DNA of 64,000 bases from contig CAVRWT010000003.1 in the NCBI GenBank assembly GCA_963724825.1, forward strand, positions 183,807-247,806, read 5' to 3'. How positions within the stretch are numbered: the first letter of the stretch is position 1; each line of letters begins with the position of its first letter. Origin of the DNA: an uncultured Acidobacteriota bacterium. Lineage in GTDB: Bacteria; Actinomycetota; Acidimicrobiia; Spongiisociales; ZC4RG35. A program made the translations under genes and the position numbers. This document shows, piece by piece, positions 2,990 through 55,582 of the stretch. The notes below the pieces were generated by a model, which was given only the letters and a program-made list of their open reading frames with translations, was not told where the DNA came from and did no database searches.

Positions 2990-3674
2990 TCATTGAGGAT
3001 CAGTGACGCCCCTGGGATGTGCGGACCGACCCAAACGCGATACACCCAACTCAGCCGCAATCGCGAGCAACCCGACCAGGACGGCGCCGACGATCAGTTC
3101 TCCGACGTCCTGTTGGGCAAATCCGTCGACGATGTATCGGCCGAGACCTCCCCACGCCACCAGGGCGCCCAGAGTGGCGGTGGCGATCACCTGCACCAGG
3201 CCAATCCTCACTCCTTCCAGGAGCAGCGGCATGGCGAGTGGGATCTCCACTCCGCGTAACACCCCGGTCTCGGTGAGGCCCATGCCCCGTGCCGCCTCGA
3301 CGGTCGCCGGCTCGACGCTCTGGATGCCGGCAATCGTGTTGGTGAACATGGGAGGTGCGGCGAGGGCAATCAAAGCCACGAGGACAGCCCACGGCTCGCC
3401 GACGCCAGCACCCATCTGCACGAGGATCAAGAACGATATGGCGAGGATGCCGAACGAGGGCACAGCCCGGCCGATGTTCACCACAGCAGTGGCTATATCT
3501 GATCCTTTGCGAATGTGCCCGAGCCAGAGTGCCAGCGGGAGCACCAGCAGCGCCAGCGACGATCACGGCCACCACCGAGATCCACACGTGCTCGGCCAGC
3601 CGAGTCCAGATCGAGTTTGGACCTGACCACGTGGACGGCTCGCTGAGAAACTCCTGAACCGAGTCCCACACCAT
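2990..3674 (-). pseudogene. ABC transporter permease (ProW/OpuAB-like), frameshifted near 3545-3565
   Basis: The N-terminus 'MVWDSVQEF...HVWISVVAVIVAGAAG' is in the frame of ORF 3051..3719. The remainder 'LPLALWLGHIRKG...' is ORF 2990..3544 in another frame. The ATG at 3674 overlaps the TGA of the upstream permease (TGATG). Confidence 0.65.
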
Positions 3675-4339
3675 CAACCCGCACTCCGCGACCAAGGCGT
3701 CAGCCACCGTTGCGCCCATACGAATCCGAGATCGAAGACCGTGGCCAACGCAACAGAGAGAGCGACGCCGACGATGATCTGGGTCCAGAAGAACGTATTG
3801 AGCCCGCGCAAGATGAAGTAGCCATAACCCCCCAGTCCGAGCACCGCGGTCACAGTGACCAGACCGACGGTGGTCACGGTTGCGATCCGAAGGCCAGCCA
3901 CGATCGCGGGCAGCGCGAGGGGGACTTCCATCTTCCAGAACCTCGCCCTTCGGGTGTAACCCATCCCGTCCGCCGCTTCGACAACGGATGACGGCACGCC
4001 ATCGATTCCGGCCACGGTGTTACGGATCAGTATCAGCAGCGTGTAGGAGGTCAGGGCGATTACAGCGTTGGACGCGTTGAGACCGACGATTGGTATCAGA
4101 AGCGCGAACAATGCCAGGGAGGGGATGGTGTAGAGAAGCCCCGTGATCCAAGTCATCGGTGCATATGTCCGCCTCCAACTGAGGGCGACGATGGAGAGGG
4201 CGAGGGAGAGGACCATTCCGATCCCAACCGACACCACAGTCAACGTGATGTGCTCCCAGGTGCGGTCCACGATCTGGTCCCAGTTGCGCACGACCCAGTC
4301 CCAGTCGAAAAGTGGGGCAGCCTCCTGGGCGAAGATCAT
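3674..4339 (-). CDS. ABC transporter permease (ProW/OpuAB-like)
   Basis: 221-aa polytopic membrane protein with a binding-protein-dependent permease signature, in operon context. Confidence 0.8.
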   Translation of the reverse strand: MIFAQEAAPLFDWDWVVRNWDQIVDRTWEHITLTVVSVGIGMVLSLALSIVALSWRRTYAPMTWITGLLYTIPSLALFALLIPIVGLNASNAVIALTSYTLLILIRNTVAGIDGVPSSVVEAADGMGYTRRARFWKMEVPLALPAIVAGLRIATVTTVGLVTVTAVLGLGGYGYFILRGLNTFFWTQIIVGVALSVALATVFDLGFVWAQRWLTPWSRSAG

Positions 4340-5452
4340 TCGGTGATCTCCTCGGCTATCGACTCGAGGTCCAACATCCCCCGGTAGACACCGTCGTCGA
4401 CCACCACCGCCACACGTGCATGACTGGTGACGACCGCGTCCAGCGCCGATCTGAGCGAGGAGTCACTGCGCAGGCTCACCAGGAACTCGTGCGGGGTCAG
4501 CTGAGCAAGCGGTCTCCCATCCACCTCTGCCCGGTCGACCCACCCCAGCAAATGGTCACCGGAAAGCAAACCCACCCAGGCGACTCCGTGCTCTTCCATG
4601 ACCTTGGTCGCCTCTTCGGGGGACCGTGTGACATCGATGACCGGGCCTCTGGTGATCTCCGCCCCGCTGATCGGATGCAGGGCAAGGCGCTTCAGACCCC
4701 GCTCACTCCCGATGAAGGACTCGACAAACGGGTTGGCCGGGCCTGGCCAGGATCCGCTCGGGGGTGTCGTACTGCTCGAGCACTCCCCCGACATTCAGGA
4801 TGGCGATCCTCGATCCCAACAGGATCGCCTCATCGATGTCGTGGGTGACGAAGACGACTGTCTTCGCCAGCCTGGACTGGAGGTCGACGAACTCCTTCTG
4901 CAGGTGGCCCCGGACGATGGGATCAACTGCGCCAAACGGCTCGTCCATGAGGAGGACGGGCGGGTCTGCCGCCAACGCCCGCGCCACTCCTACCCGCTGC
5001 TGCTGCCCTCCGGACAACTCTCCGGGGTACCGGCTGAGGAGGGACGGGTCCAGTCCAACCAGCTCGATCAGCTCGGCAACCCGGGCATCGACCCGTGGCT
5101 GGTCCCACCCAAGGAGACCGGGGACAGTCGCGATGTTCTGGCCGATCGTCCGGTGAGGAAAGAGCCCTACCTGCTGGATCACGTATCCGATCGAACGTCG
5201 AAGCTCGTGGGGCGGAATCGACATCACATCGCGCCCGTCGACCTCGATCCGTCCCGATGATGGCTCGACCAGACGGTTGATCATCTTGAGGGTCGTGGTC
5301 TTGCCACAACCGGATGGCCCGACCAGAGCCACCAACTCGCCCCGGCCGACCTCGAGGCTGAGATTGCTCACCGCTGCTGTCTGGGCGCCTGGAAACTCCT
5401 TGGCGACGTGCTCCAGCCGGATCATGGCTTCGGATGCGTCCTGGGCTCCCAC
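4336..5452 (-). pseudogene. Glycine betaine ABC transporter ATP-binding protein (OpuAA/ProV-like, C-terminal CBS pair), frameshifted near 4740
   Basis: ORF 4703..5452 carries Walker A 'GPSGCGKTT', 'LSGGQQQRV' and Walker B 'LLMDEPF', and ends '...ILARPGQPVCRVLHRE*'. ORF 4336..4794 in another frame continues '...PGPANPFVESFIG...' into the CBS domains. The junction is at a 'ggcccggcc' run. Confidence 0.75.
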
Positions 5453-5485
5453 GGTGGGTGAGACCCTACGTGCGGACCCGGTCGC

Positions 5486-18573: not shown

Positions 18574-19215
18574 GTGCTCAGATCCCGGGGCAAGAGCGAC
18601 TTGAACGGGCCTGACCAAAAGGCCCGGTACAATCCGGTGCCCGTGCCGAGAACGACGCTGTACTTCGCCTACACCGCCTTCCTGGATCCCGACCGACTCC
18701 ACGCCGTGGCTCCGGGTGCCAGGTTCGCATTCACCGCTCATTTTCCGGAGACCAAGCTCGCCTTCGTCCATTCCGAGGAAGTGGGGGCTGTCCCCTCCCT
18801 CGTCCCCGATTCGGGTCACACAGTGTGGGGGGGCGTGTTCGAGATCCCGGACGACCAGGTCTCGTCACTGACCGGGGCCGAGGAAGCCGAGGGCCGGGTG
18901 GCAGGTTGGGATCAGAAGGCCGTTGATCGCGAGGGCAACAAGTACGACTGCCTGACGTTCGTGGCCAAAGGCTCACCGAACGGCGAGCACCGACCCGACA
19001 GCGACTATCTCGAAGTCGATGATCAGCGGCGCCCGTCATTGGGCCCTGCCCGCAGGCTGGGTGATGGGTCTCGAGGACCTTGGAGAAGATTCTTTCTTCT
19101 CTTAGACCTCGACCCGGGATGTCGCATCGGCGGCCGGTACCGAGAACAACCGGTACAGGCCGTAGGCGATGAGGCTCCCCACCAACGGGAAGACGATGTA
19201 TACCCAGAGTTGTGA
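18574..19215 (+). CDS. Gamma-glutamylcyclotransferase-like (AIG2/GGCT fold) protein; true start probably near 18640
   Basis: 'TTLYFAYTAFLDPDRL' matches the GGCT 'YFAYGSN' motif. The 3' end overlaps convergent aqpZ by about 110 nt. Confidence 0.45.
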   Translation: MLRSRGKSDLNGPDQKARYNPVPVPRTTLYFAYTAFLDPDRLHAVAPGARFAFTAHFPETKLAFVHSEEVGAVPSLVPDSGHTVWGGVFEIPDDQVSSLTGAEEAEGRVAGWDQKAVDREGNKYDCLTFVAKGSPNGEHRPDSDYLEVDDQRRPSLGPARRLGDGSRGPWRRFFLLLDLDPGCRIGGRYREQPVQAVGDEAPHQREDDVYPEL

Positions 19216-31369: not shown

Positions 31370-31443
31370 TGGGCGTTGAGGGACTTGAACCCCCGACCCC
31401 TGCCTTGTAAGGGCAGTGCTCTAGCCAACTGAGCTAAACGCCC
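31370..31443 (-). tRNA. tRNA-Val (anticodon TAC)
   Basis: The minus-strand sequence GGGCGTTTAGCTCAGTTGGCTAGAGCACTGCCCTTACAAGGCAGGGGTCGGGGGTTCAAGTCCCTCAACGCCCA forms a cloverleaf. The anticodon loop is CTTACAA. There is no encoded CCA. The overlapping ORF 31228..31428 is spurious. Confidence 0.85.
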
Positions 31444-33297: not shown

Positions 33298-33438
33298 GTA
33301 TTCCTTCTTGCGATCCCGTGTCGGGCCGAAACAGGGAGCGAGACTACCGGCAGACCAGCCATTTGCTATCGGCGGAACTTGCCCTCGCCTGTAAGGCGTC
33401 GCCGATCGCGGCCACTCGCCTGCTGAACTGGACCGAAG

Positions 33439-34340: not shown

Positions 34341-34380
34341 ATGGCTTCGGTGGCCGAATGGGGCGGACCGTCGAGCCCGG

Positions 34381-36269: not shown

Positions 36270-36998
36270 GTGGCGAGATACAGAAAGACCGCGCGGCTGG
36301 TTCACACCCTGGGCCTCGACTCGATCGCCCATCGACTTGCAGGCTCGCTCTGCGAAGTCGCCACCGACCGACCGGTGTTTCATCTCACCTTCGACGATGG
36401 CCCCCACCCCGAGGTCACGCCCCGGCTTCTCGACCTCTTGGAAAGCCGCCAGGCTCCGGCAACGTTCTTCGTCCTCACCGAGGCGGCGGCGGCGAACCCT
36501 GAGCTGGCCCGGGAGATCTTGGGGCGTGGGCATGACATCGGGCTGCACAGCCGAACCCACCCCCGCCTCTCGACCGCCCCGTTCTCGACGCTCGTCGACG
36601 AGATTTGGAAGGCGCATCACGAACTCGAGGCACTCGTCGAGCGGCCCATTTCGCTCTTCCGCCCGCCCTACGGAGCTCACGGGATTCGCTCGACATACAT
36701 GGTCAAAGCGAGAGGGATGGAAACGGTGCTCTGGTCGGTCGACTCCGAGGACTGGAAGGGATTGCCGCCCGACGAGGCGTTGGACGCCAAGAAACTTCGC
36801 CCCGGTGGGATCCTGCTGCTCCACGACACCCCAGCCAGGGGTTCTGTAGTCGCCGATCAAGACCTTGGTTTGATAGACAAGGTGGAATTGACGGGGCTCT
36901 ATCTCGACGAGCTGAGCAGCCTTGGTCTGAGCCCGGTGTCCCTCGGCGACCTCAGATCAGGCGGCAGTCCTGTGCTCCGGGCCAAGGTCGCCAAGTGA
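36270..36998 (+). CDS. Polysaccharide deacetylase (CE4/NodB), intact
   Basis: 'VFHLTFDDGPHP', 'HSRTHPRL', 'LFRPPYG' and 'ILLLHD' present; 242 aa in a single frame. Confidence 0.8.
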   Translation: MARYRKTARLVHTLGLDSIAHRLAGSLCEVATDRPVFHLTFDDGPHPEVTPRLLDLLESRQAPATFFVLTEAAAANPELAREILGRGHDIGLHSRTHPRLSTAPFSTLVDEIWKAHHELEALVERPISLFRPPYGAHGIRSTYMVKARGMETVLWSVDSEDWKGLPPDEALDAKKLRPGGILLLHDTPARGSVVADQDLGLIDKVELTGLYLDELSSLGLSPVSLGDLRSGGSPVLRAKVAK

Positions 36999-37377: not shown

Positions 37378-38257
37378 GTGTCAGACCCCGGAAGGAAGGC
37401 CGAGGTCACCGGCTTCAAGGAGCGTGTCGTACTCGACACCGTCGACTGGCGTTACGTCCTCGACCGCAGACAGTCGCTCCGGAAACGACTCAGACAGCAC
37501 GAACGCCTCCGGCGTTATCAGGCGATCTCGAAACGGCTGGGCTTGTGGTTTCGCTCGACCTCAATGGCGAGGAGGCTCGGCTGGGGCATCCCGAAGAGGA
37601 AGCTGGCCGGAAAAGCCCCTCTGGTCGCCACGGTTGGCGCCGACGGTTCGGGCAAGAGCCGGCTGACCAAAGACCTGGAGCGATGGCTGGGGTGGAAGCT
37701 CGAGGTGCGACACGTCTACTTCGGCCAGCCCAAAGGCGGGGTGGTTTGGAGGCTGCTCAGCAAACCAGGGAGCCTTCACGCGCAAAGGTGGGGACAGTCC
37801 GGGCAGTATCCGCAAAGTGGCCACACGCACCGATACCTGGAAGTGGTTGTGGCTGGCCAGACACCGGCGTCGGCTGGCTCAGAAGGCGCGGGATGACACC
37901 CGGAATGGAGTGACCGTCATCGCCGAGCGCTTCCCGCTCGCCGAGTTTTACCCCATGAGCGAGCCGATGGATGGCCCGCGGCTTCAAGGGTCCTCAGGCG
38001 GTACTGCGAGGAGAGAGCTCGCCATATATCGAGGCATCGAGCCGCCCGACTTAACGATCATTCTCCAAACCGACTTGGGAACCCTCCGCGATCGCAAGCT
38101 CGATCTCACTCTCGAGGAGCACACAGCGAAAGTGGAGGCAGTGGCCGGACTGACGCCGGGTCCGGGTCGTGTCATCATCGACGCCGGTCCCCCATACGAA
38201 AGAGTCCTTCTCGAGGCAAAGGCCGCAGTCTGGGAGGCGATCCTTGCGACACGTTGA
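37378..38257 (+). pseudogene. P-loop NTPase/kinase-like protein, one frameshift near 37810
   Basis: Walker A 'VGADGSGKS' is in ORF 37378..37896. The continuation 'VTVIAERFPLAEFYP...LTIILQTDLG' is ORF 37817..38257. Confidence 0.45.
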
Positions 38258-38990
38258 GTTCCTTGGCCTGCCCGGGTCCGGGAAGACCACTCTCGTCACC
38301 AAGGTGGTGGCGGCCTTGGATGGTGCGATCGAGCTCGAGGATGCGGTGCGCTCGGCCGTCGCCGCCGGCGGCATCGATGCCACTTCCAGGACCGCAGCCC
38401 GGGTTTCAAGGTCGAGCTCGAGCCGTCTTTGGAAGAGCGCCTACGCCCGATCTACTGACCGCTTCGATGCACTGAAGAGGTTCCTCTCGGCGCATCCCCA
38501 GCTCATGGAGACCGTCCTCGCCGCTCAAAGGGAACGCCGTGATCGTGACCGCGGTCAGGACCTGGTCTTGGGGTGGGTGATGAATCTGTTCGCTCGATAC
38601 CAACTCGCCACCGAGGCCGAAGCTTCCGAGTTTCTGCTGATCGATGAAGGGTTCTGCCAGCGGGCGCTGGCCCTGTTTGGATACGGCTTCGCCCCGGAGG
38701 ATCAACCTCGCCTCAATGACTATCTCACCGAGATGCCGAGACCCGAGGTAGTCGTCCTGGTCGAGACGCCGCTCGCCAGATGTGTGGAGCGTCTCGACAA
38801 GAGAGGTTGGTCGGAGCGACTCATCGGGCTCTCGCCTGACGTTCGCCGCGGCTTCCTCGACACTTCGTTCGAGGTGTTGGGACAGGTGGCCGACCAAGCT
38901 GAAAGGCTGGGCTCCCGGGTCATCCGCGTTGACGGCGAGCAACCGGCAGACGTCGGAAGCCAGGCCGTGGTCGTTCTCCTCGCTGGCTGA
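38244..38990 (+). CDS. P-loop NTPase (sulfotransferase/kinase-like), TTG start inferred at 'MRHVEFLGLPGSGKTT'
   Basis: Walker A 'GLPGSGKTT' sits at the extreme N-terminus. The upstream part of ORF 38169..38990 overlaps the preceding gene. Confidence 0.45.
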   Translation: MRHVEFLGLPGSGKTTLVTKVVAALDGAIELEDAVRSAVAAGGIDATSRTAARVSRSSSSRLWKSAYARSTDRFDALKRFLSAHPQLMETVLAAQRERRDRDRGQDLVLGWVMNLFARYQLATEAEASEFLLIDEGFCQRALALFGYGFAPEDQPRLNDYLTEMPRPEVVVLVETPLARCVERLDKRGWSERLIGLSPDVRRGFLDTSFEVLGQVADQAERLGSRVIRVDGEQPADVGSQAVVVLLAG

Positions 38991-39099
38991 CCCAGCGCCC
39001 GAAGTCATAATTCTGGGAACTTGGTAGCGTCCGCGAAACTTATCGAGATAACCACTTGGAGTGGTCGAACAACCCTCTTAGTATTCACGAACAGAAGCT

Positions 39100-42025: not shown

Positions 42026-42080
42026 AGCTCGGATCTGATCATCGAGTGCCCGTACACGGGCTAGAGAGGGGAAACAGGGG

Positions 42081-44413
42081 ATGTTTGGGAGGATGAGGCG
42101 GCGGCTGACGCTGGTCGGGTTGGCGTGTTCATTGGTGGTGACCGGAGCGCTCCCCGGTGGCCTCGGGATTGCACTGGCGATCGACGATCCGGCCGATTTG
42201 GTGCAGGTGGTCGACACCACGACTGCTTTCACTCCGAGTTCGCCCGGGCCGGCGGATGGCGTGTCGACCGGCACATGACGGCTTGAACGCAAGCCTGATC
42301 GTGGTCGACTCCGATACGACCACCCGGGGACCTTCTTCGTTCGACCTCACCACCGGTCTCATCCGCTACACCAGCGACCCCGCTCTTGGCGGGGTCAACC
42401 ATGACGCCACAGGGTGTCGCCTATGACAGTGCGAGCGGGACTCTGTTCATTTCCAGCGGCAGCAGTTCGACGTCTTCCTTTTCCACGCCGGGACAGATCG
42501 AAGATTCGACACCGGCGACGACAGCGCCGTGACCCAGATCAAGTCGGCAGTGACACGGAGGACCCGGCCTTCAATCCCGACAATGGTCATCTCTGGTTCT
42601 GGACGGTGAGACCGGAACCGTTCTATGACATCGACCCCGTCGTGAACGGATTTGGTGATCTAGACGACACGATCACTCCGTTTTCCATACCTCAGGATGA
42701 CGACGGCAACCTTCCCGGGACTGGGAAGGGCTTGCCTACGACCCGGTCAGTCACAACCTGATCGCCGGCGCCAAGTTCAACAACCAAATCATCTTCGAGT
42801 TCACCACCGCCGGGGTCTACGTCCAGCAACACGACACCTCGAGCCTCGGCGATCTGCAACAGATATCGGGTCTCGGCGCCCAACCCGAAACCGACCCGTA
42901 CCCGGTCACGTACTGGATCGCCGACCGAGGGGTCGAGGGCTCTGTTCAAGATGGCAAGCTCTTTCGAGTCACCTTTGGCCCAGCTCCGGTCCTGCCCCCG
43001 GCCCCGCCGGTGCTGACAACGATTCCCCCGATCCCGGCAGTCAACGAGGGGACACTGGTCACTTTCGACGCCAACGCCACCGACCCGAACATCGCTGACA
43101 CGTTGACCTTCTCCATCCATCCCACGCTCCCGGGGTCACCCCCCGGCGCGACGATCAACGCCACCACCGGAGTGTTCACCTGGACCCCGACCGAGGCCCA
43201 AGGGCCTGGGTCCGGCGCCTACATAATCAGAGTGGTCGTCAGCGATGGCGCCGAGACGGACTTCCAGGATGTGTCGATCACTGTCAACGAGGTCAACTCG
43301 CCGCCGGTGATCACCGGCGGCCCCTTCACTCCACTCCACGGTGAGGGGGAGGCAGTCACCTTTGACATGCACGGCACCGACTCCGATCTCCCGGCACAAA
43401 CCAAGACCTGGAGCGCCACTGGGCTGCCTCCAGGGCTGGGGATCAACACTGCCACCGGGCGGATCTCGGGAACCGTGAGTGCCGGCGCCACTTCTGGTTC
43501 GCCGTACTCGGTGCAGGTCACGCTCTCCGATGGAATCGCCCAGGACATCGAGAACTTCGATTGGACGATCCAGAACACCAATCCACACGCCCCAGTGTTG
43601 AACCCCATCAGCAACAAGACCATCACCCAGGGTTCGGCGTTGACCTTGAAAGCGACCGCCAGCGATGCGGATAGTGGCCAGACTCTGACGTTCTCGCTGG
43701 TGAACCCACCCGGCGGGGCCACCATCTCGAGCAACGGCAATTTCAGCTGGACTCCAAGTCAGGCCGGCAACTACCAGGTGACAGTGAAGGTGACCGACAA
43801 CGGAAGTCCGGCCCGGAGCGACAGCAGGACATTCACGGTGACCGTTCAGGCCCAGCCTCCAGTGAATATCAACCCGTTCGTCGATGACGACGGAAGCGTT
43901 TTCGAGAACTCGATCGAGTGGCTCGACTCCCAGGGAATTACCTCTGGATGCAACCCCCCAATGAATGATCGCTTCTGCCCCGATGACTACGTGACCAGGG
44001 GCCAGATGGCCGCCTTCCTGGTCCGGGCACTCCACTACAGCGACGGGGGCAACGTCAACTACTTCATCGACGACAACGGTCACGTCTTCGAGAACGCGAT
44101 CAATCGGCTGCGCACCGCTGGGGTGACCCAGGGATGCAACCCACCGACCAACAACCGCTACTGCCCCAATGCTTTCGTCACCCGGGGACAGATGGCAGCG
44201 TTCCTGGTCCGGGCGTTCGAGTACACCGCTGGGGGGAGCACCAACTACTTCATCGATGACAACGGGAACGTGTTCGAATCGGCCATCAACCGATTGAGGA
44301 CAGCCGGGGTCACTCTCGGTTGCAACCCCCCTGTCAATGACCGGTACTGCCCCAATGCCTTGGTCACCCACGGACAGATGGCGGCCTTCCTAAAGCGCGC
44401 CCTCGACGGTTGA
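42081..44413 (+). pseudogene. Secreted surface protein: signal peptide, YjiK/phytase-like beta-propeller region ('WEGLAYDP'), three Ig/cadherin-like domains, three SLH-like repeats; frameshifts confined to 42250-42760
   Basis: Signal 'LTLVGLACSLVVTGALPG' (ORF 42081). The broken N-terminal third is spread over ORFs 42157 and 42414. The intact 467-aa C-terminus (ORF 43010..44413) includes 'FVDDDGSVFENSIEWLDSQGITSGCNPPMNDRFCPDDYVTRGQMAAFLVRAL'. Confidence 0.6.
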
Positions 44414-46112
44414 CATGGGCCGTCGTGTGTAGGCGAGCTTTGGGGGGTGGGTCGGTTCTCGTCGTTCTTCTGGCCGGGCTGCTCCTGCTTGTCGGGACAG
44501 GCGTTGCCTGGGCGGACATCTCCGTTAGCCGATATCTCGAGGTCGAAGCCGATCAATGGGAGGTCTGGGCGCCCGGGCCTTCGGGGGTGGCTCGGAAAGA
44601 CGCGAACACGATGTTCGTGGTCGACACCGACCGCAACAACTACGCGGAATGGGAAGACGACGGGATCAACCTCTGGGAGATCTCCATGACCGGGAGCGTG
44701 ATACGAACCGGGGCACTCTCATTCCGCGAGCCCACCGGCGTCGACTTTGTGCCCGCCACAGGCACCCTGTATGTGTCTTCCGACAGCACGCGGGTGGTGT
44801 GTATGCCATAACCGCAGGTGGTGACGGCAATTTCGGGACCGGAGACGATGTCGAGCACCTCATAGACATAGGGAGCGGTGACGTCGAAGACCCCGTCTAC
44901 GACCCAGTGTCCGGCGACCTCTTTGTACTGAACGGCGGCAACAGCGGAGTGATCTACCGGGTAGACCTGCCTTCTGAAAGTGTGCTTCCCAACCCGATCG
45001 AGCTGTCCGACTACGGGGCCGACTGGGAGGGCCTGGCACTGACCCCTGACGGGAATCTGTTGGCCGGCAACAACTTGGGCCAGGAGATTCATGTCTTCGA
45101 CAAGGCGGGCAACCATCTCCAAGTGATCGACCTTGCGGGGATCAACGACGGCGAATCCGGTGGCGATGAGCTCATTCGCATCTCTGGACTTGGTGTGTCC
45201 ACCCCTGGTGCGGGCGGTACCGGATACGACATCTGGGTCGCCGATCGTCAGGCGACATGCAACTGCGACGAGCCCGACAACATCGACGGACGGGTGTGGC
45301 GGCTCAGCACCGATGGGACACCGCCACCTCCGACTTCCACCTCCTCGTCCTCTTCGTCTTCCTCGTCGTCCTCCTCAAGCAGTAGTTCCTCTTCTAGTTC
45401 CAGCTCCAGCAGCGAGTTCGACCTCCAGTTCGACATCGTCCACGACGTCTTCAACCACATCGAGCACGACCTCGACCACGACCACCACAACGATGCCGAC
45501 CACGACAACCACCAACCCCGGCACGACCACAACTACCACCCAGCCCAGCGGCGGGGGTGGCGGGAGCAACCAGAACCCGTTCACCGATGACAACGGGTCG
45601 GTCTTTGAGAACTCCATCGAGTGGCTGGCGGCCCAAGGGATCACGCAGGGTTGCAACCCACCGGCCAATACCAAGTTCTGCCCCAACGACCAGGTCACCC
45701 GAGGCCAGATGGCGACTTTCCTGGTCCGAGCCCTCGACTACCCGAGCACCAACAACGATTGGTTCATTGATGACCAGGGCATATCTTCGAAGGTGCGATC
45801 AACCGACTCCGTGAGGCCGGTGTGACCCAGGGTTGCAACCCGCCAGACAACAACCGCTTCTGCCCCAACACCTACGTGACACGTGGGCAGATGGCCGCCT
45901 TCATGGTTCGGGCCTTCGGCTATTCAGGTGGAGCCTCGACCAACTACTTCGTCGATGACAACGGCCACATCTTCGAAGGCGCCATCAACCGGCTTCGCAC
46001 CGCCAAAGTGACCCTGGGCTGCAACCCGCCGGCCTACAACCGATACTGTCCCGACGAATACGTCACCAGGGGACAGATGGCGGCCTTTCTGAAACGGGCC
46101 CTGGAGGGCTGA
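44410..46112 (+). pseudogene. Secreted surface protein: signal peptide, YjiK-like propeller ('ADWEGLALTPDG'), poly-Ser/Thr linker, three SLH-like repeats; at least three frameshifts
   Basis: Fragments are in ORFs 44410..44811, 44556..45590, 45133..45825 and 45822..46112. The last junction looks like 'DDQGHIFEGAINRLREAGVTQGCNPP' with one base missing near 45780. Confidence 0.6.
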
Positions 46113-46145: not shown

Positions 46146-47132
46146 TTGGCCAGTCAAGACAAGAACCAGGACCTGCCGACTCTCGGGGTTGTCATACCAA
46201 CCATCGGTCAGCGGCTCGAGCTGAAACGGATGCTGGAGTCAGTCCTCGAACAGACTCGCCCCGTCCACGCGATACGGGTCGTCGTCGACGCGGCGGACAC
46301 CTCGCTCGTCGAAGGCATCGTCTCCCAGCTCAGCGGCCAACTCGGCGCCACGGATATCGAGGTGCTCAGCACCGGTGCCAATCGTGAAGAAGGGGCGTAT
46401 CTGGTCGAAACGGGCTACGGGTATGCGGTCAATCGCGGCCTCGAGCGTCTCGAGACCGATCTTGTCGCCTTCCTCGACGACGACGATGAGATCCGTCCGA
46501 CCCACTTCGCCGGTTTGGAGGCGGCCCTCGATCCCACCGCAGGACGAGGTGTTGCCTACGCCCGGGTACTGATCCGCCCCACCAGCGGCAAGGAAAGATT
46601 GTTTCCCGAAGGCGAAATGCCCGAAGGCAAGATCGGCATCGAGCTTCTCATCGACCCCCAGGCAGTCCTGCTCCCGGCCACGCTCATACACCGCACGGTG
46701 CTCGAGAAGACAGGCCCCCTCGATCAGACACTCGACCGTCTCGCCGACACCGACATGCTGGTCAGGCTGGGTCTCGCCACCCTTATCGCTGCGGTGGACG
46801 ATCCGACGTACGTTTATTACCGGATCTCGCGCAGAGATGTGGTGAGCGAACGGGTGTTGACCGAGAGGTCCCGGCTGCTCCACAAACACCACAACCACCT
46901 CAGCTGGCGTCAACGAGTGATGTTCTGGGACGTGCAGGCCCGGTCAACCCTCCGCTCGGGAATGGAAGAACTGGGCCGTGAGGCCGGACACGAGGTCGTA
47001 TCGGCCTTCTGGCCAAACCCGCCAAGACTCCTGGTCGATTGGTACGTGGCCATCCGTCGCCGCCAGACCCCGAAATTCGTGACCTCAGCCGCCAAAAGAT
47101 TCAACCGGCTTTTCTCGTTGAAAGGCAGATGA
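46146..47132 (+). CDS. Glycosyltransferase family 2, intact
   Basis: 'LGVVIPTIGQR' and the 'FLDDDDE' DxD motif; 328 aa in one frame. Confidence 0.7.
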   Translation: MASQDKNQDLPTLGVVIPTIGQRLELKRMLESVLEQTRPVHAIRVVVDAADTSLVEGIVSQLSGQLGATDIEVLSTGANREEGAYLVETGYGYAVNRGLERLETDLVAFLDDDDEIRPTHFAGLEAALDPTAGRGVAYARVLIRPTSGKERLFPEGEMPEGKIGIELLIDPQAVLLPATLIHRTVLEKTGPLDQTLDRLADTDMLVRLGLATLIAAVDDPTYVYYRISRRDVVSERVLTERSRLLHKHHNHLSWRQRVMFWDVQARSTLRSGMEELGREAGHEVVSAFWPNPPRLLVDWYVAIRRRQTPKFVTSAAKRFNRLFSLKGR

Positions 47133-48087
47133 TCACAAGCCCAACCGACTTCAACGAGCTCCTGGTCGCCCTTCAAGAACAGTTCGCCTGGCCGAGAACA
47201 CGCGGTGGCATACGAGGAAATCTCGACGTGGGAACGTGAGCGCTCGGGATCAATGTTCCACCGCCTACACGGCCTACCTGAAGGTCCCGATGTTGTAGTG
47301 AAAACAGTGCGTAGTTGGACAGCTCTCGAAGCTGAATCCACCTTCGAAGCCATGGTTGACCTGGCGGACACCCTCGATGAGGCAAGGATCGCCGGAGCCG
47401 AAGCGGTGCGACCCTTAGCCTGGTCCGGTGAGCCGCCGACGCTTGTCATGCCCTTTGTTGAAGGAATCGACTTGATTTCCCTCCTCCGCCAACCCGACCA
47501 CCCGGCCTGGCGAAATGAGGTCGCGGTATGGCCGAGATCAGCCGGAGGAATGCTCGCCGCGTACCACACCAGGCATCGCGCTCCCGGGTCTGCCACAGCA
47601 GCAGCCAGCGAAGTCAAAGATCTGGCAAACCGATTCCGGATCGGCCGGACCTTCGACGGGTCGACTGGAGCGACCGACTCGCAGGCTCGTACGGCGACTT
47701 CGGCCCCGGGAACCTCCACGCCTCCGTCGACGGCGATCTCTACCTGCTCGACCCACCCTGACCCCGACTCCGGGCCCCATACACCGTGACCTGGGGAATT
47801 TCATCTTCGAGCTGCGACGCCAACTCGCCGGACGGGGGTTCACTCCGAGCCCTCCGATCCCCGGAAATTTCGAACGGCTGTGCGATTCCTTCCTTCAGGG
47901 CTATTCCGATGCCCGGGGCTCGACCCTCGACGACACCGATCTGGCATTGATCGCGCTCTTCGAGCTGCGGCGCGCCGCCGGCATGGCCCGCAAGCGCTTT
48001 CCCAGGCGTCCCGGCGACGCCCTCTGGTTCGCACGCTCCGCAATGGCGAGCCGGCGTGAGGTGGTGGCGAGTCCAGATCATCCGTAG
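47129..48087 (+). pseudogene. Aminoglycoside-phosphotransferase/protein-kinase-like (APH fold) gene with at least three frameshifts
   Basis: The ATG overlaps the GT2 stop (AGATGA). Fragments 'MITSPTDFNELL', 'AYEEISTWERERSGSMFHRLHGL...VVVKTV', 'YGDFGPGNLHASVDGDLYLLDPP' and 'PIHRDLGNFIFEL...' lie in four frames (ORFs 47039, 47205, 47528, 47515). Confidence 0.55.
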
Positions 48088-48116
48088 AAGGGGGCAATCT
48101 CGGTTTCCAGTGCTCG

Positions 48117-49791
48117 TCACCAAGTAGCTGAAAAGCGGTGCCATCCGCGTTCTGAACCCGGAACACCGACGACCGCATGCCGAGTTCCCAGGTCGAAGTC
48201 CTCGGGCTGTAGGTCACAGTTCACGAAGTCGTAATGCGCCCGGGACGCGCTCCCGTCGTCGTCGGCCACCAGCACCGAACCGAAATCGCAGTTCATGAAT
48301 CGCACCGGCACCTCGGGTTGGGTGGCGTGCTTGTCGATGATCAGCGTGGCTCCGTTACTGGTGACGTTGGTCCAGGTCTGGGTGTCGGCCTCCCCCTGGG
48401 CGCTCTCGCTTCCCAGGGCGTGAGAGATGATGGCCACACCGTTCTCAAGGAGGGTCAGATCGTCGTACTGATAAGAGTTCTCGTAGGCCCCATGCTCGAT
48501 GCCGGCCTTGCCGTTGTAGTACCCGACGAACCCTTGACGGGGTGGATCTCGGAGTTGTTCTGCCAGACAAACACCCCGTTCGAAAGATTGTTGTGACCGA
48601 CGTTGTTCTCGAACTTCCAGACATCCCCGGCGCCTTCTGGCCAAATGAACCCGGAGCTCTCCGAGTCGGGCTCGCCGCGGACACCGACGGCAACCGAGTT
48701 GCTCACGGTCATGTTCGAGCCGTTGCCGAGAAAGAACCCGGCGAGCCGAAACTTGTTGCCTTCGACGCCAAGGTCAACTCCGGCCACGACCGCCCTATCC
48801 CAGATCAGGTCGTCGGTGTCGTTGGTCGGATCGTCCTCCTCAGGCGGGGGGTCCCACCAGTAGGCCTCGTTGAGCACGTTGTAGGCGATCGTGTCGCGGA
48901 AGGTGATGCCGTGGGAGGCATGGGGGACGAAGGCGTGGTTCCCGGCGTCCCGGACCACCACACCTTCCACGATCGATCCCCGACTCCCCTCGCCCGCCAT
49001 GTGGAAATGGAGCCCGTAACGACCGGTCGCGGTCGCTGTCGCCGAAATGTGGGGCCATGTAGCGGAGGGCGACGTAGCGGATGGTCTGGGGCTGGGTGGA
49101 GCGGAGGAAGACGTGGGCTGAAACCCTCCGGTGTCCCTTCGATCCGAACATTGCGGGTCAGGTTCATCAACTCAGTGGGGTAACCCAATTCATTGGGTGG
49201 CGGAGTCGATGTCACTTCCTGGAATACCAAGTAGTCGCCTTGAGTGTTGGGAGCGGCCATCACCTCATCGCCCTGCCACGACGGGTCGTATTCGTAGCCC
49301 CAGGCAGGTTTCTCTTCCCCCTCGAGATCCAACCGACCGTCTCCCATCACCCACAGCCCGACATCTGTAGGCACCGGGTCCATCCCGCCACCGACGAAGG
49401 CCGAGTTGTCGACGCCCTGAAATATCAGTGCGTGCTCGATGTCGCCCGATGCCGGCTTCATCACCAGCTCCCCCAGAACCAACACGTTTCCAGATGCGGT
49501 CAGCGTGATCGACTTGTTGGGGTCGAGCACCCAGGACTCGCCAGCGGGGACCGTGAAACCTTCGGGGTAATCCTGGTCGGCGCTGATCACGACTTGGGTG
49601 AGACCCGCTGTCCCCCCGCTGATCGATGTGGTCGACTGATGATCGTGCGAGGTGGTGGTTGAGCCTTGGACCTCGGTCGTCGATGTCGAAGTCGAATCGA
49701 CCGCTCCCGAGGTGCAACCAACAACCACCATCAGCAAGGCGCCGATGACTGCTCGACCTTGGCGGTGTGACTTCATGTTGCCAAAGCACAC
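48117..49791 (-). pseudogene. Secreted right-handed beta-helix (pectate-lyase-like) protein, paralog of 49773..52079; at least two frameshifts; no SLH-like tail
   Basis: Lipobox 'LLMVVVGCTS'. 'NNVGHNNLSNGVFVWQNN' beta-helix motif. Fragments are in ORFs 48805..49791, 48455..49000 and 48117..48644. Confidence 0.55.
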
Positions 49792-52079
49792 CAGATCGAC
49801 ATCGGGGCGTCATCGGGTGCCGCCACCGACCGCTGGCCGTTGAAAGTGACCGCCAGGGCGTTGCCACCGGATCGCGCCACCAGGGCCGATGACGTTGCAG
49901 AAGCGGTGGAGCTTCCTTCGATGGCCCGTTTGAGGAAGGCAGCCATCTGCCCTCTCGTCACGTAGTTGTCGGGACAGAACCGATTGTTCGTCGGCGGATT
50001 GCACCCCTGGGTGACTCCAGCGGCGCGCAGCCTGTTGATCGCGTTTTCGAAGACGTGACCGTTGTCGTCGACGAAGTAGTTGGTGTTGCCGCCAGCGTCG
50101 TAGCCGAATGCTCGCACCAGGAAGGCCGCCATCTCGCCACGGGTCACTCTGCGATCAGGACAGAACCTGGTGCCTGAGGCGTTGCACCCCTGGGTCACCC
50201 CGGCCGCACGGAGCTTGTTGATCGCTGCTTCGAAAACGTGGCCATTGGTATCGGTGAAGTAGTCGCCGCTGCCTTCACTGCTGTATTTGAGGGCCCGCAC
50301 CAGGAACGCCGCCATCTGTCCCCTGGTCACGTAGTCGTTGGGGCAGAAACGGCTGTTGGCCGGTGGGTTGCAACCCTGGGTGATCCCCTTGGTGGCCAGC
50401 CAATTGATGGCGGCCTCGAAGACGTGCCCGTTGGTGTCCGAGAATCCGCTGCCAGGCACGCTGCCGTTGTAGAAGGCGTTGATGCTGGTGACGGTCCCGT
50501 TCCCCATCAGCCGATAGGCGGTGCCGTTGGAACGCTGGACCCGGAACACCGAATCGGCCCGGGAGCCGGACAGATCGAAGTCGGAAGGCTCCAGCCCGCA
50601 TCGGATGAAGTCGTATTCGCTCGGCTCAGGCCCTCCCGAGTCGTTGACGTCGACCTTGCCCAGGTCGCAATCGACGAATCGCACAGGTCGTTCGGCGTTT
50701 CGGGCGTGCTCATCGATGACCAGGGTCCCACCGTTGGTCTTGATCTTCGACCAGATCTGGGTGTCGGCTCCGGCATCACCAGGCTCGCCCATGGCGTGGG
50801 AATGAATCGCCGCGCCGTTGCCGAGCAAGGTCAGGTTCTTGTAGACGTAGGAGTTGGTGTAGGCACCGTGCTCGACGCCGGCCTGGGCGTTGTAGTAGGC
50901 GACGTAGCCGTCGATCACGTGGGGCATCTCGTTGTTCTGCCAGACGAAGATCCCGTTGGTCTCGTTGTTGTGGGCCCGGTTGTTCTTGAAGGTCCAGGTC
51001 GCCTCGTCGTCCTCAGGCCAGATGTACCCGGAGCGGCTGGCGCCGTCCTCCCGTCTGAGACCGACCACCACCGAGTTGGTGACCGAGACGTTGTCTCCTT
51101 GACCGAGGTAAAAGGCGCCGAGCCGATGAGTGTTGCTCGGGTTGCTGGTGGCCGTCATGATCGCCACCACTGCGCGATCGAAGCTGATGTCGTCGGACGA
51201 CGTGCCCTCATCCCACCAGTAGGCCTCGCCTTTCACGTTGTAGGCGATGGTGTTCTTGAAGGTGATCCCGTTCGACATGTGGGGCACGAAGGCGTGACCC
51301 TTGGTGTCGCGGATGAGCAGACCGTCGACCACGCTCCCACGACTGCCGTTCCCCGCCATGTGGAAATGGATCCCATAACGCCCGGTGATGTCGCTGCTCC
51401 CGAAGTCGGGAGCCATGTAGCGGAAAGCGGCGTTCTTGATCGTCGAGGGGACCGAGGACCTGATGAAGACATGGGTGTAGCCGGTGGTGGTTCCTTCAAC
51501 CCTGACGTTTCGAGTCAGATTGAGCAGTTCGGCGCTGTAGCCGAGGGCGTTCTTGGCCGGGGTCGAGGTGACTGTCGGAAACTGGTGTAGTTGCCGGGCT
51601 TGTTGGGAGCGGCCACGACGGTGTCCCCGGCCCACGAAGACTGATAGGTGTAGGACCAGGCCGGCTTCGACTCCCCCTGGAGGATGATCTTCCCGGCGCC
51701 CATGACCCAGAGCCCGACATCGGTGGCGATCGGGTCCATCCCCCCGCCGACGAAGTTGTTCTCGTTGATCCCGGTGAAGCGAAGGAGGTGAGTGATGCTG
51801 CCGTTGGCCGGCTTCATGATCAGAGTGCCGCGAACGATGATGTTCGCCGCTCGAGGTCACGGTGGTGTTGACGTTCGGGTCGAAGGTGACGGTGGTGCCG
51901 GCGGGGACCGTGTATCCAGCACTGCCCAGGTTGACCGTTCCCGACCAGGTGATCGTCGCCGCTTCGGCTACCGGGGTGTTGGTGGCGAAGTGCACGCCAA
52001 GGACCATCGAAATCGCCCCCAGCATGGCGAGCAACAGGAATCGCACCGGCCAAGCCCGGAAGCGTGGTGAGTCAGTCAT
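49773..52079 (-). pseudogene. Secreted right-handed beta-helix (pectate-lyase-like) protein with three C-terminal SLH-like repeats; two frameshifts near 51600-51830
   Basis: True start 'MTDSPRFRAWPVRFLLLAMLGAISM' within ORF 49773..52628. The segment 'MKPANGSITHLLRFTGINENNFVGGGMDPIATDVGLWVMG' is in another frame (ORF 51515..51817). 'NNRAHNNETNGIFVWQNN'. SLH-like repeats 'GCNPPANSRFCPNDYVTRGQMAAFLVRAL' x3. Confidence 0.6.
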
Positions 52080-52289
52080 CACATTGGCTCCTTCTCCGCT
52101 CCGGACCGAGGCCTCCCATACACATGCACTCCCATGGGCCCGCACCGGCACGCCGGACTCGGTCAAACCGAACCATAACTGGGATTTCGGACATCGTGAC
52201 ATACCCGCAATCGCAAGCCGGTAACCCAGATCTGGGTCTGTTGGTCGAACCACCTCGGAGTTAGCATTTTCCGGGAACTGGGAGGTTTC

Positions 52290-52957
52290 ATGGCGGAGGG
52301 CACCACTGAGCGTGGTCACATGGCTGTTCTGAGCCGTCTCGTGTTCCGGGTGTTGCTCCCGGTCACCGCGGTGTTCGTCCTTGTCATGGGCGTCGCCTAC
52401 ACCAGCGACGTGCCGGTGACCGACCTGCTTCGCGACCCCAGCGCCACTCTCGAGGGCCCCTGGTACATCGGGCTGGTCTCGATCGCCGGGGTTGCCCTGT
52501 GGGCGGCTGCGGCGGCGATCTGCATGATCTGTATGAGTGCAAACCCGACTCCCGGCGAGCGCTCGCTTCTCTTCGCCGGCGCGGTCACCAGCGTGATTCT
52601 CGGTGCCGACGACGCTTTCCTCGGGCATGAGGCCATCAAGAACATCATCGGCATCCCCTCGCCGATCACCATCGGCGATCTACGGGATCATCACCATTGT
52701 CCTGTTCTGGCGGGCCTGGCCCTATCTGAGAACCAGGCCGGATCTCGTGGTATTCGGGATGGCAGTTGCTCCTTTTCGGGATATCTGTGGTGCTTGACGC
52801 CGCTGGTGAAGCCGATCTGCCAACACCTCCCTACTCGGCAGTGATCGAGGACACGGCGAAGTTCCTCGGTCTGGTCACCTGGGTCACCTTCTTCGCCGGT
52901 GTCGGCAGAGATTTGATCCGGGGAGGGGAACAAGCTGATCGCTACGCGGCCGCTTGA
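52290..52957 (+). pseudogene. Hypothetical polytopic membrane protein, two frameshifts
   Basis: Hydrophobic segments continue across ORFs 52290..52844, 52603..52797 and 52766..52957. Confidence 0.35.
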
Positions 52958-53031
52958 GCTTCGCTCTCAGTCACCGACGACCACATCGCTGAACCGAAGG
53001 CGTAGGGTGGCTGCTCTCAACACCATAGGAG

Positions 53032-53810
53032 GTGACTATGAGACGAGCAGCCCTGATCATCTCGGTCTTCGCTGTGCTATTGGCGATGACGGCGGCGGGA
53101 GCAGTCGTCGCCGGCTTCCCCGACGTTCCCGACGACCACGTCCATGCCAACGGCATCGAGTGGGCTGCCGAGAACGGGTTGATGGTCGGATACAACAACG
53201 GCAACTTCGGGCCTGACGACCCGGTAACCCGAGGCCAGTTGTCCACCATCTTCCTCCGTTACGACAACACGCTCGATGACTCGGGCAGCGGTGGTGGAAC
53301 CCAGGGACCTCCTGGGCCGGAGCTCCCGGAGCACCCGGAGCACCCGGCGACGACGCCCAGGTGACGGCGCAGGTCGGAATCGGTGTCATTCCGCTGCTCG
53401 ACGGGCTCACAGTCGGAGGCCCGATCGCGGACCAATCACACCCCACTCCCGGGCGCGACGCTTGTCGCTCGCACGCCGGTGACTACATGATCGAGGTGTA
53501 CGGCGCATTTCAGATCCCCGGGGACGGCGCAGCCCGTGGAATGTGACCTCTTCGGAGTGGGAGTAGTGGTGTGGCCTCAGCTCACGTTCTGGATCGACGG
53601 CACTGACGGACAGTCGACGGCCCTACGACAGTGGTGAGGGACTCATCTCCCCCAACGTCCTGATGCCCGACTGCAACGACAGACACGCCAATGTGTCGGG
53701 TGAGATAGTGATCAGCCTCGACGCAACGACCAGTGTCGGCTTGATCGCCTTTGGCTACCCGAGCGACGATCGGTGCGCACTGCAGGGGACGGGATGATCC
53801 AAGGCGGCGG
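53032..53810 (+). pseudogene. Canonical SLH-domain protein with collagen-like G-A-P repeat and small C-terminal domain; several frameshifts
   Basis: Signal peptide, then SLH 'FPDVPDDHVHANGIEWAAENGLMVGYNNGNFGPDDPVTRGQLSTIFLRY'. '(GAP)3GDDAQ' appears in a shifted frame. Coding-like segments continue in three frames to about 53810. Confidence 0.45.
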
Positions 53811-54054
53811 CGGGCTCATCGCCTCACCGCTCGGATCGCTCACCTTGGTGGCGCTGCGCGATACCTTCGCCTTCGAGGGCGAAGGCGGCGAGCTGACAAA
53901 TCGACAGGAATCTTCACCTCCCTTCGTTCGGGAGGTGAAGATTCCTGCGCAAGACCCCACCTGCGCAAGGTCTCCATCCGTCGACCACGCGTCGCCTGAG
54001 GGAACCCATCCTTCCCTGGAAAACGTCCAACGGGGAGAATGAGGAGATGACCTG

Positions 54055-55582
54055 TTGGTCTTGCGCCGACTGAACGCAATCGTTGTTGCATTCTTCGTCG
54101 CTTTTGGCGTCCTGATTCAGGGCGCCCTCCCCGCTCATGGCTGTAGTTGTGCGCCACCCAACCCCTACGCCGGTCTCGCCCAGGCCGATGGGGCCTTCGT
54201 CGGCACCCTCGTGGATGTCGATCGAGGCGTGCTACCGCTCACCGACTCGGGTCAGCTCATCGACTTCTACTTCGAGGTCGAGGCCGCCCTGAAGGGCGAC
54301 ATCGGCGAGACCGTTCTGGTCAAGAGTGCGTCAGATGGCGCCGCCTGTGGAATCGAGGTCCCGATCGGTACCCGGGCCGGGTTCCTTCTCTACCAATCGG
54401 ACGGCCACTGGGAAGGAAACCTCTGCGCCACCCTCGACGCCGACGCCCTGCTCTCCGCCGCCCAAGGGCTGCCTGAGCCCGTGGCCGGCTCACCTCCCCA
54501 CCTGATCGTCGCTGCCGAGATGGGAATGGCCGGCCTGGTCGCCATGGATCGCCAGGGCCGGATCGTTGGATATGGCGAAGGCCCCTTTCCCTACATGGTG
54601 AGCTCCTGCCCGGACGACGAGACCTTCATCGGTTCGGCATCGGACCCAACGGTGAAGGTCTGGTCTTACACCGATCTCGGCCTGATCGACCAGCACCTGA
54701 TCGACCCCAGTGGCACCGCCTGGATCAACGAGTTGATCTGCACCGGTCCCGCCGGTGAGTCCTTCCTGGCGACCAAGGGCCTCACCGGTGTCGAGGGAAG
54801 CTCTCTGGTCCGTTACGCAGACGGGCACAGCCGAGGTCGTTGCCGAAGACATCGAACGACTCGTTCCAACCACGGATGGCCCTGTGGCGGTGGGGAGCGA
54901 TGGCGTCATCTATCGAGTCGACGAGACGACTGGGAAGCTCACCCCTCTGAATGAGCCGGTTGGGGATGTCAAAGGCCAGGTCGTTGCCGCTGTCCCCTCC
55001 CCCGATGGATCGCATCTCGCCCTTTCAGCGATGGACTACGACACCAACCCCTACGAGGGTCGGGTCTACGTGATCGACCTCGAGGACGGAGAGAGTGTCG
55101 AAAGAGACTTCGCGTGCGACATCTATCCCATATGGCTCGACAGTGAGACGCTTCTCATCCAGGACCACTGCACCACTGAGGTCGGTGTCACCTACACCAC
55201 CGAGCTGGAAGTGGTTGGTGAGGGCCAAGCTCCCGACTACGCCTACACCGCATACGTCACCGACGAAACCGGCGCCCTCTTCTACCCGAGTGAGTTCGCG
55301 ATCCGAGTTGTCGATCCTGGCACCGAGGAATCGACCGAGCTGGCCCGCCTCGTCACCTATCCGGGAGCGATCCTGGTGGTTCCGGAGTCGGTTCGCCCCA
55401 AATGGGAAGGCTCGGCGTTCACCGCCTCGGTCCAATACCCACCAACGACCTTCATGGAAGCCCCCGCGCCAGGGGTTCCCGGGCCCGAGGCGGTTGCCTC
55501 GGAATCACCGGCCTGGCTTCTGCTTTTGGCACTGATTTCAGCCGGTGGGGTGTTCTGGCTCCTGTTGCATCAGCGTTCTTAG
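54055..55582 (+). pseudogene. Secreted protein with C-terminal TM anchor (beta-propeller-like), one frameshift near 54830
   Basis: Signal 'IVVAFFVAFGVLIQGALPAHGCSC' (ORF 54055..54954). The continuation 'TAEVVAEDIERLVPTTDGPVAVGSDGVIYRV...' with C-terminal 'AWLLLLALISAGGVFWLLL' is ORF 54755..55582. Confidence 0.45.

Follow-up and report, generated by a model that had tools for sequence, protein, structure and literature searches.

The window analysed here, a 64,000-nucleotide (nt) stretch of contig CAVRWT010000003.1 (positions 183,807 to 247,806; assembly GCA_963724825.1, from an uncultured bacterium of the Acidimicrobiia), is crossed by many interrupted reading frames. Frameshift-aware alignment of its genes to orthologues places 47 break events at 2.99-55.6 kilobases (kb), distributed over about 20 genes. 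The many frame breaks listed in a preliminary description of the sequence are thus verified by homology, and their extent is larger than was reported there. Very probably, these breaks are single-base consensus errors of a long-read metagenome assembly and not mutations of the organism, and most probably the breaks as observed are not a property of the organism at all. The G+C content of the window is 0.637 (63.7%) over 64 kb, and not the 68% given previously.

Breaks were mapped with a custom protein-to-DNA aligner permitting 1-nt insertions and deletions (indels), run with every available orthologue; for genes without good homologues, a coding-potential path was computed with a self-trained codon-usage Viterbi procedure. 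A plot of G+C at third codon positions (GC3) was tried for frame tracking and dropped, as it was too noisy at 64% G+C. In tblastn searches with intact orthologues (up to 80 loci), collinear matches switched frame at the same window positions. The mapped events comprise 34 insertions and 13 deletions, all 47 of which gain or lose 1 nt, as the preliminary description had it; the excess of insertions (34:13) is significant (p = 0.003), and the events outside the envelope island described below are insertions without exception (7/7). Additional frame changes, from coding potential alone, were seen in three genes (42.07-42.72, 44.46-45.5 and 53.05-53.9 kb), and further breaks beyond the 47 presumably exist in genes lacking good homologues. 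Two other indels, at 23559 and 28978, were rejected as breaks, both being located upstream of start codons.

The loci used for comparison, L001 to L098, are contigs of Acidimicrobiia-type metagenome-assembled genomes (MAGs). The closest, L097 (ENA ERZ25039492 contig_23673), is 95.5% identical at the nt level across window positions 23.5-30.1 kb and, on this identity, appears to belong to the same species as the window or nearly so. L002, a short-read contig, is 86.8% identical across 23.2-30.1 kb; L001, a long-read contig labelled as a Microflora Danica (MFD) MAG (MFD02242), is 82.8% identical across 19.4-30.1 kb; and L098, a Logan short-read contig (SRR19175045), is 88.8% identical across 3.1-6.5 kb. 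The long-read L095/L096 (ENA ERZ25039469 contig_105666) is syntenic with the window from 28.1 kb onwards, as far as the distal boundary of the island (about 55.6 kb), with about 70% nt identity where it can be aligned (28.1-46.8 kb); beyond that, protein orthologues were used. Finally, L081 to L092 are several JGI/ENA short-read contigs, each covering parts of the island. Outside the island, the broken genes are the following:

2993..3719, minus strand: ProW/OpuBB-type ABC permease; +1 C at 3553 (GCG[C]CAG), the single 1-nt gap against L098
4339..5452, minus strand: OpuAA/ProV-type ABC ATPase with a CBS tail; +1 C at 4742 (GGG[C]CTG)
18583..19102, plus strand: GGACT (AIG2-like) family gene, PF06094; +1 at 19012-19015, the last ~29 codons lying in another frame
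25283..26265, plus strand: luciferase-like monooxygenase (LLM); +1 at 25715 (CTG[C]ACA) and +1 at 25833 (GAG[C]ATG)
28207..28981, minus strand: Nif3 (DUF34); +1 C at 28315 (GTG[C]CCC, CCC becoming CCCC)
29100..30138, plus strand: proline-racemase-family gene; +1 G at 29427 (CTC[G]ACC), from the nt alignment

The single breaks previously assigned to the ProW-like permease, opuAA, Nif3 and the proline racemase, as well as the double break in the LLM gene, are all found among these; for the permease and opuAA, the change of frame can already be seen in the translations. The L098 orthologue of the OpuAA/ProV-type ATPase is intact (362 amino acids, aa), and three orthologues (L030, L052 and L062) agree on the break in the GGACT-family gene by frameshift-aware alignment. 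For LLM, the two parts of the Pfam Bac_luciferase domain (3-145 and 185-312) match separate fragments, nine orthologues agree, and both insertions are seen in a four-way nt alignment with L097, L002 and L001. For the proline racemase, Pfam Pro_racemase positions 1-90 and 89-324 match fragments in different frames; about 80 orthologues agree, and the intact P0207 (348 aa) is 96% identical to the window protein across the break. Through the insertion at 28315, Nif3 and the CT398-like zinc-ribbon gene downstream of it come to share a frame, creating a 566-aa open reading frame (ORF; 27473-29173, minus strand); this fusion is artificial, and a gene caller would report it as a single protein.

Six sites (3553, 4742, 25715, 25833, 28315 and 29427) are fixed to the base by close relatives. 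All six are +1 and private to the window, the inserted base being absent from L097, L002, L001 and L098. The comparison with orthologous loci in the closest relatives, advised in the preliminary description, found them intact in L097 and in short-read relatives. In L097 the LLM (327 aa), Nif3 and proline racemase (348 aa) genes are all intact; L097 has, however, a private +1 insertion of its own (GGT[C]GAC) in a lipoprotein gene whose window copy is intact. The nt alignment shows another private insertion in the long-read L001 and none in the short-read L002.

The same holds within the island. The JGI short-read contig Ca4SiDcb, with a permease 92% identical, carries genes in the same order as the window and intact, coding for 314, 258, 329, 244, 475, 249 and 964 aa, and the short-read L081, L084, L085, L087 and L089 have no breaks of their own in island genes. 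In L095/L096 the island is fragmented (GFO_IDH_MocA, 153+142 aa; ABC ATPase, 204 aa; CE4, 177 aa; the 964-aa gene, 527+90+120+224 aa), at positions that differ from those of the window. Fragmented genes in L095/L096 and in L097 lie mostly within the same envelope island; fragmentation seems to be general for this locus in long-read assemblies of this type. Separately, L092 differs from L087, to which it is 99-100% identical, by two 1-nt deletions (~1711 and ~3403), which disrupt a GT2 glycosyltransferase gene and the gene of the ABC-2 permease; occasional frameshifting indels apparently also occur in older short-read or hybrid assemblies.

One break could be compared with an independent assembly. 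The GT2 glycosyltransferase at 46146 in the window (GT2c below) has an identical counterpart in the Logan k-mer assembly of run ERR12036786. Upstream of this counterpart, the 1,695-bp Logan contig has an ORF that is open for at least 203 codons and ends 33 nt before the GT2 gene, as in the window, whereas in the window a TGA at 45771-45773 limits this frame to 112 codons. The Logan ORF is open where the window is closed, and by this gene geometry the break at 45776-45782 is therefore absent there. Scans of metagenomes and genomes for a near-identical independent assembly of the island gave 77-92% protein identity and about 80% nt identity at best.

The distribution of the breaks is strongly uneven. 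Their density is about 1.6 per kb at 30.15-55.6 kb, 0.8 per kb at 25.2-30.1 kb and about 0.04 per kb elsewhere; in the 28 kb formed by 5.5-25.2 and 55.6-64 kb, one event was seen against 20.6 expected under uniformity (p = 2e-8). The clustering noted in the preliminary description therefore stands, but its break-free zone does not, since one break lies at about 19015. The dense region is an island beside a tRNA-Val gene that encodes an ABC-2 exporter, glycan enzymes of families GT2, GT8 and CE4 and surface proteins anchored by SLH domains. In the distant relatives L007/L020, the tRNA-Val is followed directly by a sigma-factor gene whose window counterpart is at 55.7 kb. L097 (7735-17734) is 95.5% identical to the window up to 30131, near the stop codon of the proline-racemase gene, and 67-73% identical at the nt level thereafter; its island allele has an AMIN-like gene in the place of GT8 and lacks the ABC-2 exporter. 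As judged from these comparisons, the tRNA-Val neighbourhood is a mosaic, hypervariable hotspot for envelope-glycan and SLH genes. It is alike in content to the hypervariable surface polysaccharide and S-layer islands (of the O-antigen, capsule and secondary cell wall polymer types) that are often located beside tRNA genes and exchanged between strains; this likeness describes the setting and not the breaks. The features of the island are as follows:

30263..31197, plus strand: GT8 glycosyltransferase; eight events (deletions 30342, 30646 and 30759; insertions 30418, 30446, 30480, 30583 and 30593)
31233..31373, plus strand: 5' remnant (~48 codons) of a GFO_IDH_MocA oxidoreductase gene, abutting the tRNA-Val; from tblastn with the L095 GFO fragment
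31370..31443, minus strand: tRNA-Val(TAC), inside the variable region (Rfam, ARAGORN)
31466..33300, minus strand: ABC-2 permease and ABC ATPase (Wzm/Wzt-like); both intact, with full-length single-frame matches to more than 10 relatives
33439..34381, plus strand: GT2 glycosyltransferase (GT2a); four +1 insertions (33703, 34067, ~34125 and ~34310)
34384..35158, minus strand: CE4 polysaccharide deacetylase (CE4a); five events (insertions 35065, 34876 and 34444; deletions 35027 and 34523)
35277..36246, plus strand: GT2 glycosyltransferase (GT2b); insertion 35349, deletion 35480, insertion 35949
36270..36998, plus strand: second CE4 deacetylase (CE4b); intact, 244-aa relatives with full coverage
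37012..38251, plus strand: orthologue of a 475-aa gene with a GADGSGKS P-loop; TAA, loss of ~200 nt and frameshifts near 37350-37420 and 37760-37790
38244..38993, plus strand: AAA/P-loop kinase-like gene; intact, no frameshift against L087, L095 and L097
39029..42016, plus strand: 964-aa-type surface protein with three C-terminal SLH-like repeats; at least seven events
42066..44410, plus strand: He_PIG/Ig-domain surface protein with SLH-like repeats (Pfam; coding-potential path)
44458..46112, plus strand: SLH-repeat protein; -1 deletion at 45776-45782 verified, other frame changes presumed
46146..47132, plus strand: GT2 glycosyltransferase (GT2c); intact
47295..48056, plus strand: APH-like kinase gene; three -1 deletions (47647, 47760 and 48011) against the 268-aa L096 orthologue
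48116..49761, minus strand: CEMIP-type beta-helix protein (Pfam); insertions 49116, 49028 and 48173, deletion 48531
49774..52172, minus strand: beta-helix protein with SLH repeats (SLH, 61 bits); deletion 51573, insertion 51845
52290..52921, plus strand: membrane protein; two +1 insertions (52674 and 52771), 77% identical to the 217-aa L096 orthologue once corrected
53050..53895, plus strand: SLH-domain gene with several frame changes suggested by the coding-potential path alone, its sole homologue being too weak to verify them
54047..55567, plus strand: 522-aa-type secreted or anchored protein; one +1 at ~54823 against the 522-aa L096 orthologue

Five of the island genes are free of breaks (the ABC-2 permease, 92-93% identical to JGI proteins, the ABC ATPase, CE4b, the AAA gene at 38244-38993 and GT2c). 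For GT8, previously credited with at least five breaks, the eight events lie between 30342 and 30759; against the intact 315-aa orthologue of L095, identity is 40-46% without frameshifts and 64% once they are permitted, with no stops. The four events in GT2a are returned by seven independent homologues, again with no stops. CE4a was aligned to the intact 258-aa L097 orthologue and also to those of L095, L001 and L090, and for GT2b the L089, L095 and L097 orthologues agree, with 76% identity once the frame is corrected. Together with the APH-like gene, whose fragments have no Pfam match, and the membrane protein at 52290, both GT2 genes and CE4a show, by orthologue alignment, multiple events each, as had been claimed for them. 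The gene at 54055 in the preliminary description, called there a propeller gene, is also broken, but by one mapped insertion and not by several; its protein has no Pfam match. In the 964-aa-type gene the events, mapped against L095/L096 fragments, are a deletion at 39443 and insertions at 40353, 40417, 40457, 40485, 40748 and 41920. The CEMIP-type gene was mapped with the 559-aa L096 orthologue (70% identity) and with L089. In the gene at 42066-44410, the N-terminal 650 nt switch frame several times and the C-terminal 563 codons run in a single frame; its breaks are suggested by coding potential, no close intact homologue being available. The deletion and insertion at 51573 and 51845 are hidden within an open 951-aa ORF (49773-52628, minus strand), homology showing another frame between them; pairs of this kind are invisible on an ORF map.

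A module of about 60 aa with a conserved Cys pair stands in two or three copies at the end of at least five island proteins (41.4-42.0, 43.8-44.4, 45.55-46.1, 49.9-50.5, on the minus strand, and 53.1-53.3 kb). Its consensus, NPF.DD.G..FE..I.WL...GIT.GCNPP.N..FCP...VTRGQMAAFL.RAL, has a weak to moderate Pfam SLH match (29-61 bits), and it looks like a lineage-specific SLH variant that would anchor the Ig-domain and beta-helix proteins.

The gene at 37012-38251 is the only one in the window with damage beyond ±1-nt indels. An in-frame TAA interrupts it at 37330-37332, within an A-rich stretch (as seen when its translation is set against those of L097, L084 and L087), and the gene lacks about 200 nt, or about 70 codons, present in L097, L084, L087 and L095 and including the conserved motif VRVP..RE.LLLYVR..LKTT.RQ. 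Either a true lesion or a mis-assembly of this stretch could account for the stop and the gap. A P-loop gene had been listed among the broken ones; this holds for 37012-38251 and not for 38244-38993, which is intact. Likewise, the GFO_IDH_MocA remnant at 31233-31373 may be a real lesion; at this site, L095 and Ca4SiDcb carry a full GFO_IDH_MocA gene plus a gene for an NAD-dependent epimerase.

If taken at face value, the breaks would mean that the strain is losing, by real and very recent pseudogenisation through single-base frameshifts, an osmoprotectant transporter and most of its surface-glycan and S-layer programme. This reading, which the preliminary description had offered as one of two, accounts for several observations: breaks are at least 30-fold denser in the accessory island than in core operons, as relaxed selection would give; one island gene (37.0-38.25 kb) has an in-frame TAA and about 200 missing nt; the GFO_IDH_MocA gene is reduced to a 5' remnant; and contigs of two other relatives are broken in the same island. 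The record of the genes themselves is different. Random substitutions create a stop in the frames of the broken genes in 2.9% of cases, and mutation-accumulation work puts the ratio of substitutions to indels at 5-20; at that ratio, 47 natural indels predict 7-27 stops. Only one, the TAA at 37330-37332, is present in all the frame-corrected alignments. Between the window and L097, the ratio of nonsynonymous to synonymous substitution rates (dN/dS) in the broken LLM and Nif3 genes (0.047 and 0.16) falls within the span of intact neighbours (0.04-0.18), and a relative-rate count gives 325 window-specific substitutions against 397 for L002, that is, no excess. Genes with three to eight events keep 61-77% identity to orthologues over their full length; identities are 64% for GT8, 70% for GT2a, 76% for GT2b and 61-71%, by homologue, for CE4a, and 79% and 70% for the intact GT2c and CE4b. 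Coding potential and homology persist in every fragment of the broken genes, and no insertion sequence (IS) elements were found. On these measures, the broken genes do not resemble decaying genes, and selection on them is not relaxed.

Other observations also speak against pseudogenisation. The lesions are ±1-nt indels, biased towards insertion and without preference for homopolymers, whereas natural 1-bp indels, according to mutation-accumulation studies, occur mainly at mononucleotide runs; and there are up to eight of them in a gene of 0.9 kb that shows no other decay. The core genes for Nif3, LLM and the proline racemase are also broken, yet intact in the 95.5%-identical conspecific; broken island genes are confined to long-read relatives, whereas the short-read contigs are intact; and an independent k-mer assembly lacks one of the breaks. 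Recently host- or niche-restricted bacteria, such as Mycobacterium leprae, Sodalis, Shigella and Salmonella Typhi, have many pseudogenes. The window is like these genomes in its many disrupted genes, including those for transport and surface structures; however, they show nonsense mutations, varied deletions, IS elements and raised dN/dS, whereas the window shows essentially one class of lesion, one stop, no IS elements and an unchanged dN/dS. With the ±1-only spectrum, the single stop against 7-27, the unchanged dN/dS and the intact orthologues, we consider real pseudogene accumulation improbable. It is also distinctly improbable, in our view, that a burst of recent, mostly +1, non-homopolymer mutations in the island and its flank has inactivated about 20 genes in a sub-population, too recently for other decay to have built up; such a burst might stem from a mutator state or from a repair or recombination process, error-prone and confined to the tRNA-Val hotspot.

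The sequence context of the breaks bears on a further explanation, by which miscalled lengths of G/C homopolymers would be the main cause and errors would follow run content. Three of the six base-resolved insertions (3553, 4742 and 28315) do duplicate an adjacent C, but the other three are insertions between unlike bases, and only one of the six extends a run of three or more. A run of at least four is found no more than 5 nt away from 14.9% of the 47 events and from 14.4% of random island positions; for runs of at least five the figures are 0% and 2.8% (background), and no site has a run longer than four within this distance. Runs of at least four also occur at similar frequency throughout, with 10.5-11.1 per kb in clean regions and 9.9 per kb in the island. 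Because break density is strongly non-uniform and run frequency equal, error scaled by run content cannot explain the clustering. Thus, the junctions do not favour G/C runs, contrary to the preliminary description, and of its other explanation, assembly or sequencing indels, the homopolymer mechanism is not supported, there being no run enrichment and a bias to insertion, while error as such is what the evidence favours. We regard homopolymer miscalls as a highly improbable main cause. Tandem single-nucleotide polymorphism (SNP) alleles were also considered as a signature of a mixed-strain consensus; they fit three of eight base-resolved insertions (25833, 29427 and that of L097), which is not above chance by a rough estimate of ~0.17 per site, and the signature was not used.

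Glycosyltransferases and surface proteins are phase-variable in Campylobacter, Neisseria and Haemophilus, through contingency loci such as the poly-G tracts of the capsule and lipooligosaccharide loci of Campylobacter jejuni and the repeats of Neisseria and Haemophilus. The affected genes of the window are largely of these two kinds, and the frameshifts in them resemble such loci; but phase variation, or frames restored by programmed ribosomal frameshifting or transcriptional slippage, has next to no chance of being correct and is effectively refuted by the sequence contexts, as the 47 sites have many breaks per gene and no long or hypermutable mono- or oligonucleotide tracts (longest nearby run, four), no shared slippery or methylation-like motif was found at the six base-resolved sites, both +1 and -1 shifts occur, with up to eight per gene, and housekeeping-type genes are affected too.

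Consensus error in a long-read assembly is favoured because of the ±1-only spectrum, the scarcity of stops, the unchanged dN/dS, the private nature of the breaks and the intact short-read relatives. Under this reading, the contig would come from a Nanopore-type long-read-only assembly, a platform suggested by the data-source labels (the proteins of the window are filed under NCBI and ENA, on a single contig of 274,222 bp) and by the relatives: those with the same source labelling are Flye-style contig_N assemblies, and L095 and L097 share the contig naming of the MFD catalogue. For that catalogue, Nanopore reads alone were assembled with Flye --meta and polished in a single round of Medaka; no short reads were used. 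The authors looked for Nanopore errors in it, and MAGs of lower coverage showed reduced coding density (PMC12313526). Nanopore-only assemblies need a depth of about 40x to be free of frameshifting indels (PMC9262707). The consensus would have gained single-base indels, mostly insertions, where reads were few or came from diverged co-occurring strains. The island allele would be backed by the reads of one strain only, conspecific alleles being about 70% identical, and the reads of diverged sister strains may perturb the consensus around it as well; the errors would in this manner be concentrated in the island by read support that is thin or mixed. The breaks resemble the indel errors of long-read-only assemblies (Nanopore or PacBio continuous long reads; the problem addressed by the IDEEL test, PMC9262707) in their ±1-nt splits, several per gene, in being private to one assembly, and in that short-read relatives are intact and long-read relatives similarly broken. 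They differ in lying off homopolymers, in the 34:13 bias to insertion and in their very uneven density, and for the unevenness something more is therefore needed, be it low read depth at this place or a mixture of strains. In the preliminary description, uniform density, after correction for G/C-run content, was to indicate error. The density is strongly non-uniform and the other evidence still indicates error; uniform density is not a valid discriminator for indel errors. A non-uniform density is compatible with error because it tracks a strain-variable island, in which read support would be expected to be thin.

Several points weigh against consensus error. The low-depth or mixed-strain cause, as well as the platform of the contig, we infer. 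The textbook Nanopore consensus error is a homopolymer deletion, and the events here are biased to insertion and lie off homopolymers. The density in the island (~1.6 per kb) is several times that of related long-read contigs, and four of the breaks are in the conserved flank (25.7-29.4 kb), a part to which the reads of other strains ought to contribute depth. An exact look-up, in a protein collection, of ten frame-corrected versions of the 203-aa peptide upstream of GT2c gave no match. Finally, the stop and ~200-nt deletion at 37.0-38.25 kb, with the GFO_IDH_MocA remnant, may reflect some real decay in the island.

Two features outside the island were also examined. An RNase P RNA gene of bacterial class A (19935-20281, minus strand; Rfam, 294 bits, full length) accounts for a block of ~580 nt that is 82% identical even in distant relatives. 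The only indel in this RNA relative to the other loci, at ~20150, lies in a variable hairpin loop; it was considered as an independent marker of error and dropped as uninformative. L007/L020 join window position ~57272 directly to ~58455, and the 386-aa ORF in between (57304-58464) would represent either an insertion in the lineage of the window or a loss in that of L007/L020.

Read at face value, the contig would be annotated as having lost osmoprotectant uptake, Nif3, the proline racemase and nearly all of the S-layer/glycan programme, and its completeness and coding-density scores would also be lowered; it needs polishing, or reference-based repair of its frames, before metabolic or evolutionary claims are made. 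The error density of a long-read MAG can be extremely uneven and peak in those strain-variable islands that are tempting to interpret. The underlying biology is ordinary, that of a mosaic island of SLH proteins and glycan enzymes at a tRNA-Val gene in soil Acidimicrobiia.

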